Virus record (IMG/VR): IMGVR_UViG_3300025732_000020
Span: 1-64,000 of that record
Length of the DNA: 64,000 nucleotides
Strand: one strand, 5' to 3'
Origin: a virus
Part shown: positions 1,415 through 31,860 of the stretch, piece by piece
How the letters are laid out: each line of letters begins with the position of its first letter
Position numbering within the stretch: position 1 is the first letter of the stretch
Made by a program: the position numbers and the translations under genes
The notes under the pieces: model-generated
Told to the model about the DNA's origin: nothing
Database searches by the model: none
The model's input: only the letters and a program-made list of their open reading frames with translations

Positions 1415-1612
1415 ATGTACGAAGATCTTACTCAATTTGAAAGAGCATTAGCAAACTTTGGAGATAAAGTCGCACTAATAGCCGGTCTTGAAATAACAAA
1501 TAAAATTTCCCCAGAAACTGCTTATAAAGAGATTAAAAAGCTTTATAAAGGTCTAAAGAAACTACGGAAAGAAGAACGCAATTCTTGGGTCTTAGACGAT
1601 GAATTTGAATGA
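1415..1612 (+). CDS. Conserved cyanobacterial/cyanophage small helical protein
   Basis: FGDKVALIAGLE...KISPETAYKEIKKLYKGLKK resembles a cyanobacterial small-protein family. Confidence 0.7.
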   Translation: MYEDLTQFERALANFGDKVALIAGLEITNKISPETAYKEIKKLYKGLKKLRKEERNSWVLDDEFE

Positions 1613-2261
1613 GTTAATCATAGATATTTTTCCAGACTGGAGGGTAACCAACGAGCTGCCCTCCGGTCTTTCTCATATAGAGACATCTGGAGACGCGGAG
1701 ATAAAGTCTTGGACATGGGACGGGGATAACGTCAGAAGGGTCAGACTCTGTCAGTTCTCTGTTCCAGGTAAGTTTTCCGCTGAAACTTTAGTAATCTATC
1801 CAGAGGAGTTTTGTGAGGCTCCGATATTTGGCTGTGAGTATTTGAGGATTGGTGGTAAGAAGTTTTTTGGTGGGATTGATTTTCATCCACTAAGTCAGGC
1901 AGAAACTTATCTGCGTGAATATATTGATAACTACCTTGATGACATGCCAGATACCTCGGCTGAGACATCTAAGTTCTATGACCTATCTACTTACTTCTCA
2001 AAGAAGTTATGGTTAAAAACTCACTCAGAAGACTTTTATGAAGAGTTTTATAAACAAACTGGCGAATACCTGATAAGATATAAGCAATTACTTGAAGAAG
2101 CAGAGCCAACTCACTCAATGTGGGGCCTCCATAAGAAATATGACCTTCATATGGGTACACATGACCCAGCTCGTGGGATCCTTAAGGCTTATTTTTCAAA
2201 AGAATTTTCTGACTTCTACATTGAAAAGTTTCTATTCAACCTGATGAGCGAACCACTATGA
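1599..2261 (+). CDS. Ferredoxin-dependent bilin reductase (PebA/PebB/PebS/PcyX family)
   Basis: VIYP...PIFG, DFHP, FSK, YD..M...DPARGIL...F...FLF pattern typical of the family; subfamily not resolvable by eye. Confidence 0.8.
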   Translation: MNLNELIIDIFPDWRVTNELPSGLSHIETSGDAEIKSWTWDGDNVRRVRLCQFSVPGKFSAETLVIYPEEFCEAPIFGCEYLRIGGKKFFGGIDFHPLSQAETYLREYIDNYLDDMPDTSAETSKFYDLSTYFSKKLWLKTHSEDFYEEFYKQTGEYLIRYKQLLEEAEPTHSMWGLHKKYDLHMGTHDPARGILKAYFSKEFSDFYIEKFLFNLMSEPL

Positions 2262-2662
2262 AAATTGTTACCAGGTCTGATATATATGCCCAGATTAAGC
2301 CAAAACATATTTTTTCTCTTAAAGAATTAGCAAATTCCTCAAATAAACATTCCTATTATCAATTCTATGGAAATGTCTCAAAAGGTTATGGTAGTTTTGA
2401 CTTAGATTTAAATGAATCTGTGACTTATTCTGCTCATGCATTGAGATTTACAAACTTTGAAGTATTTAAATTGCTTGAAAAGGCAATAAAAATCGTAGAA
2501 AACACCGAGCAATACACCGAGTATCTATTGAGTGAGACTTTTGGCGAACCTAAATTTATCATAAATCCCCCAGGAACCATAAGATTTTATTCCCAAGACC
2601 TAATTTGTTTTTATAATGGAAAAAGTTGGAGAAAACTTGATAGATCAAATATTCACATTTAA
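2258..2662 (+). CDS. Hypothetical protein
   Basis: ATGA overlap with upstream gene, 134 aa. Confidence 0.7.
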   Translation: MKIVTRSDIYAQIKPKHIFSLKELANSSNKHSYYQFYGNVSKGYGSFDLDLNESVTYSAHALRFTNFEVFKLLEKAIKIVENTEQYTEYLLSETFGEPKFIINPPGTIRFYSQDLICFYNGKSWRKLDRSNIHI

Positions 2663-3446
2663 GTATCCTGGTAGGGAACCTCGGTATTTACATCACTTCT
2701 TAAATGAAAGACCGGATATTTTAGATTATTATATCTATGATATAAATCTAACAACTGGGAGTTTATTATATCTTTCTAAAGGAGGGATTGGGGCCACTAA
2801 GGAACCATATATAGCAAGAATGCATGAGTGGATTAAAACTTCTACAGTTAAATCTACTTTGGAGAGCGTATATAAAACCCGATTTAGAGAAGAGATCGGA
2901 AGATGGAAATATAATAAACTTAAGGAAAATTTTAATGAATATCCAGAGAAATTGAGTAATTGGACTCAATGTGCAGAACTCTACTTATTGTGGGTAGGTT
3001 CAAACTTTACTCATAGGTATAGACTGAATGGCTATGACGGAATATTTTTTCCAACAAAGTTAAAAACTAACGAACTAATTAATGCCTCACGGATAAACCG
3101 TGAGAAAAACCTTCTCTTTAGAGAGGAAGATTTGTTCTCTTTTAAGGAAAGTATTATAAATGATAATGTCATAGTCTATGCTCATCTCCCCAGAGAATTT
3201 GGCGTTTTTGGTGCGGGGTGGATGTGGAATAAAAACAATCTTGAGAGATTTACCAGAGTTATTTCAGAGTTTTCTACTACAAACAAAAAAATATTAATCT
3301 CAGCACAATTTGAACTAAGGGGAAGAATTGATTTAGATTATAGAAAGTATTTCCCAAGTTTTAATCATATCATAGTACCTGAGTTTAAAGAATCTACATC
3401 GTTTCTAGGTTCAAAGAACTCGGAGATATATCTTTTTAATTTTTAA
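2616..3446 (+). CDS. Dam-like DNA adenine methyltransferase fold, catalytic motifs degenerate
   Basis: FKYPG (cf. KW/YxGGK), YDIN, VYAHLP in place of VYxDPPY, KILIS. Confidence 0.55.
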   Translation: MEKVGENLIDQIFTFKYPGREPRYLHHFLNERPDILDYYIYDINLTTGSLLYLSKGGIGATKEPYIARMHEWIKTSTVKSTLESVYKTRFREEIGRWKYNKLKENFNEYPEKLSNWTQCAELYLLWVGSNFTHRYRLNGYDGIFFPTKLKTNELINASRINREKNLLFREEDLFSFKESIINDNVIVYAHLPREFGVFGAGWMWNKNNLERFTRVISEFSTTNKKILISAQFELRGRIDLDYRKYFPSFNHIIVPEFKESTSFLGSKNSEIYLFNF

Positions 3447-3449
3447 AAA

Positions 3450-3776
3450 ATGGGAAAACACTTCTTGCTTAATATTCATGGTGTCGATGCGCTACTACTC
3501 ACTGAAATGAGCGGGTTTATTGATTTTATCAGGCCGATGCTCGATGAATGTATGGCAGAAGTTGTTGGTGAATCTTCACATAAGTTTGAACCAGGCGGGT
3601 ATACTTATCTTGCCCTTTTAAGTACATCTCACTTCTCCATTCATACGTGGCCAGAAGATAACTGTGCTGCGATTGATATGTTCTCATGTGGAGAAATCCT
3701 CTCAGATGCTCTAATCTCATATGTAATTAAGTATTTTTCCCCAGAGACATACGACGTTAAGATGATTAAAAGATGA
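3450..3776 (+). CDS. speD: Pyruvoyl-dependent S-adenosylmethionine decarboxylase-family proenzyme
   Basis: HKFEPGGYT..ALLSTSHFSIHTWPE...AIDMFSCG motif. Confidence 0.9.
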   Translation: MGKHFLLNIHGVDALLLTEMSGFIDFIRPMLDECMAEVVGESSHKFEPGGYTYLALLSTSHFSIHTWPEDNCAAIDMFSCGEILSDALISYVIKYFSPETYDVKMIKR

Positions 3777-3805
3777 TATAATATACCAGTAATTAAATTA
3801 AGTTT

Positions 3806-3949
3806 ATGGCACGAGTAACTGTTAAGAATGGTAAAAAACTTATTCTAACTTCTCCTAAAAATACCCGCCAAGGCTCATCCAGAAATACAAAACTGTCCGC
3901 TACTAGCCGCAATGGTGCTAAAAAGCGTTATCGTGGTCAAGGTAACTGA
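3806..3949 (+). CDS. Small very basic protein (47 aa), missed by ORF track
   Basis: MARVTVKNGKK...TRQG...SRNGAKKRYRGQGN; TGATATAAT -10 element upstream. Confidence 0.7.
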   Translation: MARVTVKNGKKLILTSPKNTRQGSSRNTKLSATSRNGAKKRYRGQGN

Positions 3950-3983
3950 TTCCCTGGTATAATTATCTCTCTTATAAAGAATT

Positions 3984-4406
3984 ATGTATTTTGCAGCAGC
4001 AATTCAGGCCGTAAATGCCGGCCTTAAAAAAAGTAATGAGTTAGGCACCAAAATGAATGTCGCAGTAGTTGATCGCGGCGGTAATCTGGTTGCTTTTGCC
4101 CGTGAAGATGGCGCTTGGGTGGGCAGTGTAGACATCTCGATTAAGAAGGCAAGAACTGCTACTTTTTTTGACATGGAGACTCAAGAAATCGGTAAACTTT
4201 CTCAGCCGGGGGGTAGTCTGTATAATATTGAACATTCTAACAATGGCCTTATCACTTTTCCCGGCGGGATCCCTCTAACTGCACCAGATGGCACGATTCT
4301 TGGTGGGGTAGGTGTTTCTGGCTCGACTGTTGAGGATGATAAAGTTGTTGCTGAGGCTGCAGTTGAAGGATTTAAGACTGTTTTTGTAGAAAATTCCGCA
4401 GAATAG
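3984..4406 (+). CDS. GlcG/HbpS (PduO C-terminal-like) haem-binding protein
   Basis: [14 protein letters not shown]...S..I..KKA.TA and GGIP...GGVGVSGS motifs; TGGTATAAT promoter at 3955-3963. Confidence 0.9.
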
Positions 4407-4439: not shown

Positions 4440-4515
4440 GCCTCTATAGCTCAGTGGCCAGAGCACTCGCCTTGTAAGCGAGCGGTCCTCGGTTCAAATC
4501 CGAGTGGGGGCTCCA
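4440..4515 (+). tRNA. tRNA-Thr(UGU), CCA encoded
   Basis: Cloverleaf; anticodon arm CTCGC-CT TGT AA-GCGAG. Confidence 0.95.
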
Positions 4516-4634: not shown

Positions 4635-5081
4635 ATGGCAATCAATTACTCCCTCTCAATAGGATCCGTAAAGAAAAGACTCGTAGAAAGAGAGTTTAGC
4701 GATGTGGTTATTGAAGCAAACTTTAGTGTATCGGCATTTTCTGACGCTGTAACCGAGATCAATGGAGATGGCGATGAGGTAATCGTAACCCCTTCCTTTT
4801 CTTATTCATGTAGTGGAACTAGACAATTCCCTGTTAGTGAAATTGATCCTGAAACATTTATCCCATTTGAACAGATTACAAAAGAAACTGTCGTTGAGTG
4901 GCTTCTCGCTGGAGAAGGGGTGGAATCTATAGAAGACTTTTCATATGTAAAGAGTTGTGTTCAGAATGTTGCTCAGAGGATTTATGAATACTCTCAAGAG
5001 GTTCCCGCATTTGTACCTGGTCAAGATCCTTCTGGTTCCTCAGACGCTGAATATGTTCCCACTGAACCGTCAGACGGTTGA
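4635..5081 (+). CDS. Hypothetical acidic phage protein (possibly tail-associated)
   Basis: FIPFEQITKETVVEWL motif; GTTTAAAG motif upstream at 4602. Confidence 0.7.
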   Translation: MAINYSLSIGSVKKRLVEREFSDVVIEANFSVSAFSDAVTEINGDGDEVIVTPSFSYSCSGTRQFPVSEIDPETFIPFEQITKETVVEWLLAGEGVESIEDFSYVKSCVQNVAQRIYEYSQEVPAFVPGQDPSGSSDAEYVPTEPSDG

Positions 5082-5106
5082 CGATCCAAGGTTCTTCTGA
5101 TAGAAT
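5078..5106 (+). promoter_or_regulatory. Sigma70 promoter of the tRNA-Arg/Asn/Gly operon
   Basis: TTGACG-17 nt-TAGAAT with extended -10 TG. Confidence 0.8.
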
Positions 5107-5112
5107 ACTTCT

Positions 5113-5206
5113 ATGAGCAATGAGGGTCCAAACCTCACGTAAGTCTCGCCCCTCCTAAGCCTCTTAATAACTCATAGTTATTGATGCTCAAACCTGGAGG
5201 TCTCTT
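5113..5206 (+). ncRNA. Structured leader RNA with possible pseudoknot
   Basis: TGAGCA/TGCTCA, TGAGG/CCTCA, AATAAC/GTTATT and CCTCC/GGAGG pairings. Confidence 0.5.
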
Positions 5207-5280
<74 letters not shown>

Positions 5281-5388
5281 CTGGAGATCTGGAAATGTCT
5301 GGATCTCTTCTAAATCCTAGGGGGATTCTTCTAGGTCGGGGAATTGATCACCTCCGTTATAGGGGGAGTCCTCTAACACTCCCCACCA
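5281..5388 (+). ncRNA. Four-hairpin spacer RNA ending in a microhelix plus ACCA
   Basis: Hairpins at 5283-5308, 5316-5335, 5337-5356 and 5363-5384, then ACCA. Confidence 0.5.
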
Positions 5389-5389
5389 T

Positions 5390-5461
5390 TCCACAATAGC
5401 TCAGCGGTAGAGTCGGTGACTGTTAATCACTTGGTCCCTGGTTCGAATCCAGGTTGTGGAG
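5390..5461 (+). tRNA. tRNA-Asn(GUU)
   Basis: Cloverleaf; GGTGA-CT GTT AA-TCACT. Confidence 0.95.
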
Positions 5462-5560
5462 TCGGTAGTCGTTAGGCAAACAGCCTAGAAAGACGCCGAG
5501 ATCATCAGATGCCGTTTGGTAGTTTCCATAGTCTGATGTGGTAAAAATTGAAACTACCCT
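5462..5560 (+). ncRNA. Spacer RNA: extended hairpin plus H-type pseudoknot
   Basis: CATCAGA/TCTGATG stem whose loop sequence GGTAGTTTC pairs with downstream GAAACTACC. Confidence 0.55.
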
Positions 5561-5561
5561 T

Positions 5562-5632
5562 GCGGGCATGGTGTAGAGGTAACATCTCAGCCTTCCAAGC
5601 TGCAGTCACCGGTTCGATCCCGGTTGCCCGCT
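5562..5632 (+). tRNA. tRNA-Gly(UCC)
   Basis: Cloverleaf; CAGC-CT TCC AA-GCTG. Confidence 0.93.
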
Positions 5633-5683
5633 TCCCCACAGCATATTGTGGGGGTTCATTTGACCAATAATTATTAAAAAATA

Positions 5684-6565
5684 ATGAAACTTCAAACAAT
5701 TTTTGCCGCTGGTATTGTTGCTGCTACTGTAGTCTCTCCTGCCATGGCTCAAGTCACCAGTGTCACACAATTGCGTGATGTTCAACCTACCGAGTGGTCT
5801 TATCAAGCCATCTCTAACCTGGTATCGCGTTATGGCTGCGTTGCTGGTTTCCCTGATGGTACCTTCCGTCCTGGTCAACCCGCTACTCGTGCTGAACTTG
5901 CCGCTCTGACTAACGCTTGCCTAGATCGCATCACTGAGTTTTACACTGCAGACGACGCTCAACTCGCTGCTGCTCTGCGAGCTGAATTTGCTAAGGAACT
6001 TGGCGCTACTAATGCCCGCATTGCTACTTTGGAAAAAACTGCGGCAAAAAAAGCTCAAGGTGTTGGTAACTACGTCGGTCTGGGTGTGCTGCTGAACAAG
6101 CAAGGTGTTGATGGCGGTGGTTATACCGAGAACCGTACTATCTCTGGCGGTACTCTTCAGGCCCGTTATGCTGTGAAGAACTTTAAGAACCAGAACGCTG
6201 TGTCTGTTCGTCCTTACCTGAATGCCGTTGCTGGTCCTAATAGTGACATTGGTACTGCTGGTGGTGCTATGGTTTCCTATGACTGGAGTATTGCTAAGGC
6301 TAAGTCTGGTGTAAGTGCTGCTAACATCTACGCTGGTGTTGGTTACCAGGTTCCTTTTGCCAATGATACTCAAGCAAACTATCAGTCTGCTATCGGTGAG
6401 AAGGGTCAAGTTGTCCTCGCTCTTGGCGCCGAAGGTCGTATCACTAACTCATTGGTTGGCTTTGCTGATCTGAAGTTCCCTACCACCAACGCTGGTAATG
6501 CCTACGGTGGTTCTGGCGCTCCTTACAGCCCTGTCTTCACCACTGGCCTTGGCTTCAAGTTTTGA
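5684..6565 (+). CDS. SLH-domain outer-membrane beta-barrel protein (Som/cyanobacterial porin-like)
   Basis: Signal peptide; DVQPTEWSYQAI..LV.RYGCVAG.PDGTFRP...TRAE SLH motif; coiled coil; beta-strand C-terminus ending in Phe. Confidence 0.85.
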   Translation: MKLQTIFAAGIVAATVVSPAMAQVTSVTQLRDVQPTEWSYQAISNLVSRYGCVAGFPDGTFRPGQPATRAELAALTNACLDRITEFYTADDAQLAAALRAEFAKELGATNARIATLEKTAAKKAQGVGNYVGLGVLLNKQGVDGGGYTENRTISGGTLQARYAVKNFKNQNAVSVRPYLNAVAGPNSDIGTAGGAMVSYDWSIAKAKSGVSAANIYAGVGYQVPFANDTQANYQSAIGEKGQVVLALGAEGRITNSLVGFADLKFPTTNAGNAYGGSGAPYSPVFTTGLGFKF

Positions 6566-6848: not shown

Positions 6849-6935
6849 GTGGCAGAACTTTTCTACACAGTTACTATTGTAGGGTTTCTGATCCTACTCA
6901 CTAAATCTGTTGAAAACCTTTTGGATACTTACTGA
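6849..6935 (+). CDS. 28-aa hydrophobic peptide
   Basis: GTG-start [28 protein letters not shown] exactly fills the hli-petF gap; its TGA overlaps the petF ATG. Confidence 0.55.
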
Positions 6936-7228
6936 TGGCTACTTACAACATTACTCTTCAATCCCCTGACGGCACTGAGAATACTTTTGAGTGCCCTGAT
7001 GACATGTACATTCTTGATGCTGCTGAGGAGGCGGGTATTGATCTACCTTCTTCTTGCCGTGCTGGTGCTTGTTCTGCTTGTGCGGGTAAACTTATCAGTG
7101 GTCAGGTAGATAATAGTGAACAATCTTTCCTTGATGATGACCAAATGGACGAAGGATTTGTACTCACTTGTGTTGCTTATTCTGTTAGTGACTGTGTGAT
7201 CCTGTCTGAGCAGGAGGAAAATCTTTGA
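6935..7228 (+). CDS. petF: Plant-type [2Fe-2S] ferredoxin
   Basis: [16 protein letters not shown]...LTCVAY. Confidence 0.97.
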
Positions 7229-31066: not shown

Positions 31067-31860
31067 TAGAATGTATCTCCTACTTGTAATCCGTCGTAGT
31101 TATCAAAGTTACCATCGGTAGATTCCGTGGTATTAGTAGCATTAATGGTATCGCCATCTTGTGGATCTACAGCATCGGAGGTGTTTGTAAATGCAGATAG
31201 ATCTCTTGTAGATTCAAGGGCAGAAACTAATTGGTTAATCTCAAGTGTCGACTCAGACATAGTAGACTCGATACCAAGTGTACTTCCATCCAACGCAGTT
31301 GAGTGGACTCTTGGGGAAGACATCGCCTCTTTACGTGGGAACTGGAAGAAACGATCATTCCCACCTTCATTTTGTACCCAGCGGTTAGTGGAGTTTTCTG
31401 TAAAACTTCTGCCTCTGCGGTAGGAACTTTTTGTCATCGAGCAAGCACTTCCCCAATAACGATATGCCTCTTGCCACTTAAGGCCTGTGGATGGAGATGC
31501 TTTAGCAGCCCATAACTCAAGTTGCTGAAGAGCCTTCTCAGCGGCATCAATGACTTGTTGACGTGGGCGGAGAGTATCGAGGTACCAACGTGCCAAGATG
31601 GCTTGGGTACGACGATATGACCCGGCAATAAGAATCTTGCCTTGAGGCGGAGCAGTGAGTATGTAATTATTTATCAGAGTTGCAGCATCGTTGAGTGCTA
31701 TCTGAATCTTATCGTAGTTTATATCATTGCCTGTAGGATTATCAATATTTGACAATTCTACGGCTTCTTGATATCCAAAGACTTCAATAAAGTAATCAAC
31801 AGTTGCCGGATTGCAGTTATCCGCTACTCCAAATTTATCTGGGTACGGAGAATTTGGCAT
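31066..31860 (-). CDS. Mu gp36-like (DUF1320) head-tail adaptor
   Basis: IQIALNDAATLINNY...LARWYL...AEKALQQL. Confidence 0.7.
   Translation of the reverse strand: MPNSPYPDKFGVADNCNPATVDYFIEVFGYQEAVELSNIDNPTGNDINYDKIQIALNDAATLINNYILTAPPQGKILIAGSYRRTQAILARWYLDTLRPRQQVIDAAEKALQQLELWAAKASPSTGLKWQEAYRYWGSACSMTKSSYRRGRSFTENSTNRWVQNEGGNDRFFQFPRKEAMSSPRVHSTALDGSTLGIESTMSESTLEINQLVSALESTRDLSAFTNTSDAVDPQDGDTINATNTTESTDGNFDNYDGLQVGDTF

Follow-up and report, generated by a model that had tools for sequence, protein, structure and literature searches.

The window analysed here, a stretch of 64,000 nucleotides, belongs to the 135-kb record of an uncultured virus whose DNA polymerase shares 73% identity with the cyanophage S-TIM5 enzyme. 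Ten tRNA genes lie on the + strand between positions 4440 and 10072, with small open reading frames (ORFs) interspersed, and the 100-nt spacer between tRNA-Asn(GUU) and tRNA-Gly(UCC) is the subject of this report (Table 1). ARAGORN and Rfam place the start of tRNA-Asn at 5389 or 5390 and its end at 5461 or 5463, the Rfam match stopping at 5461. Its acceptor strands, TCCACAA and TTGTGGA, end at 5460 and are followed by the discriminator G5461; CCA is not encoded. Upstream, a promoter-like site agrees with the consensus at 10 of 12 positions and carries an extended −10 TG, and the transcript of the tRNA operon would likely start from it, at about 5113. The operon likely ends at the terminator-like hairpin 3′ of tRNA-Gly, as judged from its match to the consensus. 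Between these two sites the order is leader, tRNA-Arg, spacer, tRNA-Asn, element and tRNA-Gly. Directly after the operon, a 293-aa ORF (5684–6565, + strand) combines a signal-peptide-like start with an SLH domain (PF00395). Auxiliary metabolic genes at 1599–4406 and 6935–7228, around the tRNA array, encode a ferredoxin-dependent bilin reductase, an S-adenosylmethionine (SAM) decarboxylase, an HbpS-like haem-degrading protein and a 2Fe-2S ferredoxin.

Table 1 Features of the tRNA-Asn/tRNA-Gly spacer and its operon, in positions of the window.
Feature	Position	Strand	Evidence and remarks
Promoter-like site TTGACG-17-(TG)TAGAAT	5078–5106	+	Consensus match only
tRNA-Asn(GUU)	5389–5461	+	ARAGORN and Rfam tRNA, 64.8 bits; 3′ end at 5461
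Hairpin A	5462–5499	+	Alignment A3 and model R2
Linker GAU	5500–5502	+	With C5503 gives the conserved (G)AUC ahead of the pseudoknot
S1 5′ strand CAUCAGA	5503–5509	+	Partner 5532–5538
L1 UGCCGUUU, consensus UGCCRUUU	5510–5517	+	Invariant in all true instances
S2 5′ strand GGUAGUUUC, in the S1 hairpin loop	5518–5526	+	Partner 5550–5558
L2 CAUAG, consensus C-N-UAG (CCNUAG)	5527–5531	+	T31, A32 and G33 invariant in alignment A2
S1 3′ strand UCUGAUG	5532–5538	+	Helix 1 covariation
L3, A-rich, UGGUAAAAAUU, consensus UG-N-UA-N-AAA (UGNUANAAA)	5539–5549	+	Nearly invariant
S2 3′ strand GAAACUACC	5550–5558	+	Helix 2 covariation; duplex −11.2 kcal/mol
tRNA-Gly(UCC)	5562–5632	+	ARAGORN and Rfam, 59.6 bits
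Terminator-like hairpin, 3′ of tRNA-Gly	5633–5654	+	9-bp stem, weak T tract; consensus match only

A sequence-only reading of the spacer had described a long hairpin followed by an H-type pseudoknot, and the parts lie where it placed them. The long hairpin (hairpin A) is present, with an interrupted helix, and is followed by the 7-bp stem CATCAGA/TCTGATG (S1). The loop sequence GGTAGTTTC and the tail GAAACTACC pair perfectly over 9 bp (S2) by way of the A-rich linker, and the pseudoknot stops 3 nt short of tRNA-Gly, on whose start ARAGORN and Rfam agree. In 5,000 mononucleotide shuffles of 5464–5561, a perfect stem of at least 9 bp arose in 1.0% of cases and an H-type pair of stems totalling at least 16 bp in 0.04%. 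ViennaRNA, which cannot represent pseudoknots and therefore returns a nested minimum free energy fold, gave −26.4 kcal/mol for the spacer (z = −2.48) with a closing stem that uses GGUAGU at 5464 in place of the S2 loop strand.

This GGTAGT copy (5464–5469) had also been put forward as a second possible partner of ACTACC. The copy exists, but it is not a conserved partner, since the other S2 variants have no matching copy upstream, and the nested pairing of 5464–5469 with ACUACC at 5553–5558 was rejected as a conserved fold. It would also disrupt the covarying outer helix of hairpin A, in which G5464 and G5465 are paired and where UCGG/CCGA of the window replaces the commoner UUGG/CCAA, and it is the weaker duplex (−7.2 versus −11.2 kcal/mol for S2). 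A transient switch through GGUAGU within the subgroup that carries hairpin A is conceivable but unsupported.

The decisive evidence that the fold is real is covariation in homologues. The sequence-only reading had proposed a selected fold and named covariation and an Rfam search as checks on it. Compensatory changes are present in related phage sequences, in both pseudoknot stems and in the long hairpin, and because the two parts covary in this way the fold of the spacer can be taken as selected. The spacer has no match to any Rfam 15 family.

The pseudoknot occupies 56 nt (S1 7 bp, S2 8–10 bp, L1 8 nt, L2 5 nt), and its strands follow the classical H-type order of S1-5′, S2-5′, S1-3′ and S2-3′, with both helices kept in 24 distinct sequences. 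These were aligned after being cut at the end of S2 (alignment A2). Because the AAA run is still shifted in A2, the count was limited to S1 and the five distal pairs of S2, over which 98.3% of 288 cells are paired. Changes on both sides occur at six pairs, two in S1 (AU, UG and CG types) and four of the five counted in S2, and S1 itself is paired in 100% of cells. The covariation score was reached by none of 500 shuffles, and when the 3′ partner was slid by 1–3 columns as a control, only 31–47% of cells were paired. At two S1 positions, 11 and 8 sequences have U-G, which would be A-C on the opposite strand; the folded strand is thus the tRNA-sense strand.

Variation in S2 was captured by a scan in which L1 and L2 were fixed and eight S2 nucleotides were left free. 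The variants that it returned are all complementary (GGCCG/CGGCC, GACCG/CGGUC, GUUGG/CCAAC, AUUCU/AGAAU and CUGG/UCAG). Loop and tail change together, in six different S2 combinations of which every one is complementary: GGUAGUUU/AAACUACC, GGCCGUUU/AAACGGCC, GACCGUUU/AAACGGUC, GUUGGUUU/AGACCAAC, AUUCUUU/AAAGAAU and CUGGUUUCC/GGAAAUCAG. The helix could be extended by C-G pairs between the CC after the loop UUU and the G(G) before the tail AAA, with a bulge of 0–2 nt; because both sides are invariant, this extension is given as possible only.

While the stems vary, the loops are nearly invariant. In L3, T41, G42, T44, A45 and A47–A49 are invariant in A2, where only GTG had been fixed, and in only some of the scans. 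A3, T4 and C5, which form the AUC before S1, are also invariant in A2, at positions that the pseudoknot search patterns left free. The invariance of the loops depends in part on the search patterns, which held either loops or flanks constant. A second scan was anchored on AUC, the conserved S1 halves and L3 and imposed nothing on the 22 loop nucleotides; the true loci were found again, with L1 and L2 unchanged in every true copy, and within reach of these anchors no true copy with a different L1 or L2 was found. Eleven further loci from the free-loop scan were set aside as unrelated, being coding-like, non-complementary in the middle of S1 and devoid of loop/tail pairing. Read from the alignments, the combination of variable stems and fixed loops is the signature of a selected three-dimensional surface.

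Hairpin A consists of an outer helix (5462–5466/5495–5499), a bulged A5467, the helix GUC/GAC (5468–5470/5492–5494), a 1 × 3 internal loop, an inner helix (5472–5477/5483–5488) and a terminal loop (5478–5482). In alignment A3 (17 distinct sequences), 95.3% of cells are paired and five pairs of the outer helix have changed on both sides. Nothing can be read from the invariance of the inner helix and the internal loop, because the search pattern prescribed both. Two natural variants were reached by way of the pseudoknot scans, CUUAG-CGAUUAA-CUAAG at locus L038 and changes at L036 and L052, and in these the inner-helix base is kept. In tRNA-linked copies, including that of the window, the hairpin begins at +1 after the discriminator. 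Its model, R2, scores 60.8 bits in the window, the only copy that it detects in the 135-kb record.

Hairpin A and the pseudoknot also occur separately, which identifies them as two independent modules. Hairpin A stands alone behind tRNA-Arg in phage DSL-LC02, and a partial copy precedes an ORF in S-EIVl. In S-EIVl-like phages (L003:1005–1042, L004, L005, L010, L015, L018, L022 and L034) its core is found without tRNA context; an extended UUGGG...CCCAA stem surrounds it there, and the whole lies in the 5′ leader of an ORF that is conserved and begins MMNLQQTYAGVDP. Conversely, pseudoknot-bearing phages that lack hairpin A have another hairpin in the slot between tRNA and knot, such as UUGGUGC-UAC-GGCACCAA in L053 or CCGGA/UCCGG in L060, L064 and L045. 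Further evidence of independence comes from L037 (1240–1272) and L041, where hairpin A is shortened by an internal deletion and the pseudoknot behind it is intact.

Among 50,697 GenBank phage records searched with blastn, the whole element was found only in Synechococcus phage S-SZBM1, a cultured T4-like member of the Kyanoviridae, where it occupies 31590–31685 on the minus strand of OL473597.1, directly behind tRNA-Pro. Pattern scans of IMG/VR and JGI metagenomes located the hairpin A core at 32 loci and the pseudoknot at about 40 loci (24 distinct sequences). The flanks differ, which excludes that the homologues are assembly duplicates of one genome. When ARAGORN was applied to all loci, nearly every pseudoknot proved to lie inside a same-strand tRNA array, with a tRNA for Asn, Thr, Pro or Ser upstream and one hairpin between tRNA and knot. 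A tRNA starts 3 nt after S2 in six distinct sequences. In many homologues other modules intervene and the next tRNA is at least 90 nt downstream; the unit that is released may therefore not be the same in all phages. Four loci (L046, L047, L068 and L069) have no tRNA within 1.2 kb upstream of the pseudoknot; these copies lie in long non-coding stretches with other conserved modules, followed by a tRNA. Model R1, built for the pseudoknot, matches once and only once at each locus, and once in the entire 135-kb record. A 24-bit R1 match at L052:2622 was dismissed as an extra copy, as it falls in apparently coding sequence.

The gamma-type polymerase of the window is absent from S-SZBM1 and from the other searchable pseudoknot-bearing records, and the element is therefore common to at least two unrelated cyanophage lineages, between which it presumably spread through exchange of tRNA-array segments. 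Within the genomes searched, it is restricted to phages. The exact pattern had no match in 185,579 species genomes. In 151 host-family genomes, the best R1 score was 24 bits, compared with at least 72 bits for full-length true copies, and R2 matched none of the 151. Patterns allowing two mismatches gave chance-level or no matches for either module in 401 cyanobacterial genomes. These host sets are samples, and the absence holds for the genomes searched. As neither module has a counterpart in them, nothing speaks for simple mimicry of a host RNA. A search of the 135-kb phage record for antisense targets of the conserved loops returned only 9–10-mers at chance level.

Other RNA modules accompany tRNAs in these arrays. 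In the window, the leader at 5151–5201 (+ strand), just before tRNA-Arg and about 300 nt upstream of the element in the same operon, matches the abiF RNA family (RF03085) with 39.4 bits against an Rfam threshold of 37 bits. One of the 151 host-family genomes (L101) has a related RNA of 33.1 bits immediately before a gene for a 313-aa Abi_2 protein (PF07751). The leader appears to be an AbiF antitoxin RNA in a phage copy. An abiF-like motif also precedes tRNAs in S-SZBM1 (L001, about 1737–1778), L046, L068 and L069. A recurrent hairpin with the loop GGAAAGAUAAACC was seen at 16 fetched loci, several of them redundant copies of the same contigs (L001:1855–1895, L006, L029, L032, L037, L045, L064 and others); many of its copies occupy tRNA spacers, and some, as at L045, immediately precede the pseudoknot. 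Another spacer hairpin of tRNA arrays, CUGGAAA-NN-UYYGG, occurs in the window at 5290–5303, between tRNA-Arg and tRNA-Asn, and in L020, L047, L049, L053, L055, L068 and L069. Finally, a tRNA-like element not called by ARAGORN is present at L001:1608–1680 and near the hairpin A copies of L033 and L020. It has the form CUCUG-GUAGUC-UAUUGAUAAG-GAC ... GGGUUUGAUUCCCAG-A-CAGAG, with a 5-bp acceptor-like stem, and has the string GGUAGUC...GAC in common with hairpin A.

Comparison with described RNAs gave no family to which the element belongs. A search of 14 kb with Rfam 15 returned no match over 5462–5561 at E values up to 1, and the spacer alone, at E values up to 10, returned only chance minus-strand hits to CRISPR-DR2 (15 bits) and SNORD12 (12 bits). 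The families covered by this null result include HDV-like, hammerhead, pistol, twister and hatchet ribozymes, preQ1, SAM-II/V, wcaG and ToxI. A literature search found no description of the pseudoknot motif, which appears to be undescribed.

Several known systems nevertheless share parts of its architecture or setting. Phage T4 stable RNAs C and D (species 1 and 2, rnaC/rnaD) are structured non-tRNA RNAs of a tRNA cluster that are transcribed together with the tRNAs and freed by the enzymes of tRNA processing. The element has the same type of placement, inside a tRNA cluster, on the tRNA strand and between predicted processing sites, and these small structured RNAs within a phage tRNA operon are its closest functional analogy. 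There is no sequence relation between them (the blastn search of 50,697 phage records matched only S-SZBM1); fold, host group and phage lineages differ, and processing is a prediction in the present case. In preQ1-I and SAM-II RNAs, a hairpin loop is paired to a 3′ tail by way of an A-rich linker, and the loops are invariant. Like these and SAM-V, the element has loop-tail pairing and loops that are conserved above its stems, and its A-rich third loop is suited to the minor groove of S1, as in H-type aptamers. It differs from such aptamers in having no covariance-model match, in being larger and in being sited among tRNAs instead of ahead of the genes of a single pathway.

RNA antitoxins of type III systems, ToxI among them, are small protein-binding RNAs that are often pseudoknotted. 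The abiF RNAs (RF03085) belong beside them; they neutralize AbiF toxins by direct binding (PMC12373285). The element differs from abiF- and ToxI-type antitoxins: it lacks repeats, no toxin gene lies next to it, and its pseudoknot has no counterpart in the 151 host-family and 401 cyanobacterial genomes searched; a decoy role suggested by this likeness is by analogy only. The wcaG RNA motif (RF01761; PMC2864571) is, like this element, an orphan structured RNA of cyanophages. Each wcaG unit has UGG behind a hairpin, much as UG(N)U stands behind S1. Its overall form, two units of GUUU-stem-loop-stem-UGGYG, has a different consensus, whereas the present element has a 22-nt loop and an S2 of 8–10 bp placed at least 11 nt downstream. 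No wcaG match was found in the 135-kb record at E values up to 10. S-SZBM1 does contain a genuine wcaG RNA, with short loops and a different consensus, which lies elsewhere in the genome from the element.

HDV-like theta ribozymes sit directly 3′ of tRNAs in gut phages and have a proposed role in the tRNA trailer (PMC10879173). The element resembles them as a pseudoknotted RNA that starts within a nucleotide of a phage tRNA 3′ end (PMC10879173). Unlike them, it is a simple H-type knot after a hairpin and has no match to an Rfam HDV family. HDV-like and theta ribozymes form a nested double pseudoknot in which P1 starts from G+1, P3 lies between P2-5′ and P1-3′, P1.1 is present and the catalytic C is in J4/2. 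Manual mapping onto this fold left only 5 nt between S2-5′ and S1-3′, with no room for P3; the nucleotide at +1 after the tRNA is U instead of G, and 8 nt separate S1-5′ from S2-5′. A hammerhead has the core CUGAUGA ... GAAA and three stems; the window has CUGAUGU and the homologues CUGGGGU or CUGGUGU, and there is no stem II between CUGAUGU and GAAAC. The pistol fold, also mapped manually, needs P2 and P3, both of which are absent.

On balance, we think it probable that the spacer encodes a stable RNA of about 100 nt that is released by RNase Z and RNase P and binds a specific partner. Such a two-module non-coding RNA would be co-transcribed with tRNA-Arg, tRNA-Asn and tRNA-Gly from a sigma-70-type promoter. 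Host RNase Z, cutting after G5461, would set its 5′ end, and host RNase P, cutting before G5562, would set its 3′ end at 5561. Once released, such an RNA would be stable, its 5′ end being base-paired and its 3′ end knotted, and the knot would present a precise three-dimensional surface to its partner, which may be a host or phage protein and for which the RNA may act as a decoy. Transcription, excision, stability and partner binding are inferred; that the stems are free and the loops fixed favours partner binding over mere space filling. The abiF-like leader makes a decoy role conceivable for other RNAs of the operon. A bolder extension by analogy, which we consider unlikely, is a trans-acting decoy that is launched from the tRNA operon by host tRNA-cutting enzymes, neutralizes a host RNA-binding defence or RNA-decay protein and, with the abiF-like leader, would form a multi-warhead anti-defence cassette.

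The most serious alternative, possible though in our judgement doubtful, is that the element works in cis, within the multi-tRNA precursor, and is without function after release. Its 5′-terminal hairpin and the knot would either protect the fragment downstream against 5′-end-dependent RNase E/RNase J or against 3′ exonucleases, or insulate the folding and cutting of the neighbouring tRNAs. Hairpin A stands exactly at +1 of the RNase Z site, so that a cut there would leave a base-paired 5′ end, and the exchange of hairpins in this slot (L053; L060, L064 and L045) suggests a need for a hairpin rather than for one particular hairpin. A cis role would also agree with the occurrence of hairpin A in a non-tRNA setting, the ORF 5′ leader of S-EIVl-like phages, and with the many other structured modules that occupy tRNA arrays. 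A barrier should, however, tolerate changes in its loops, yet the three pseudoknot loops are nearly invariant while the stems drift, and the internal loop of hairpin A is nearly invariant across unrelated lineages (its inner part having been fixed by the search pattern). Moreover, each array has a single copy, although every tRNA would need protection. Accidental complementarity, with an unselected fold left by a decayed tRNA or a duplication, is barely credible: the direct repeat of GGTAGT (5464 and 5518) and D-arm-like strings UUGGUAGUC would suit such a remnant, but both stems are maintained by two-sided changes in many lineages, the loops are kept across two unrelated phage groups and shuffles never reach the observed covariation.

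Catalysis and ligand sensing would each account for the invariant loops in another way. A new small class of self-cleaving ribozyme, cutting the tRNA 3′ trailer or the spacer in a role like that of theta ribozymes, would fit the pseudoknotted fold, the invariant unpaired nucleotides, the ribozyme-like conservation and the position directly behind a tRNA (PMC10879173). The spacer alone matches no Rfam ribozyme family at E values up to 10, none of the HDV-like, hammerhead and pistol folds can be mapped onto it, and homologues have CUGGGG or CUGGUG where the window has the hammerhead-like CUGAUG; we therefore regard this as improbable. Even slighter is the prospect of a riboswitch-like aptamer that senses a ligand and tunes downstream read-through or processing. 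The architecture recalls the folds of preQ1-I and SAM-II, but no Rfam riboswitch matches, the downstream content varies between a tRNA at +3 and other modules, the identity of the tRNA varies, and no expression platform, terminator or ribosome-binding site is consistently present.

Annotations of phage tRNA arrays usually list the tRNAs and treat the spacers as junk. The present spacer, in contrast, contains a strongly covarying pseudoknot with loops as conserved as those of riboswitches and ribozymes. At 56–100 nt, the element is a small and clean candidate for structural work and for screens of partners or activity; a cultured carrier exists in S-SZBM1 on Synechococcus CB0101. By analogy, the abiF-like leader suggests that such operons can carry protein-binding decoy RNAs. 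If the element binds a host factor or cleaves itself, it would constitute a new functional RNA class, and would support the view that phage tRNA operons, together with host RNase P and RNase Z, serve as a delivery system for small effector RNAs.
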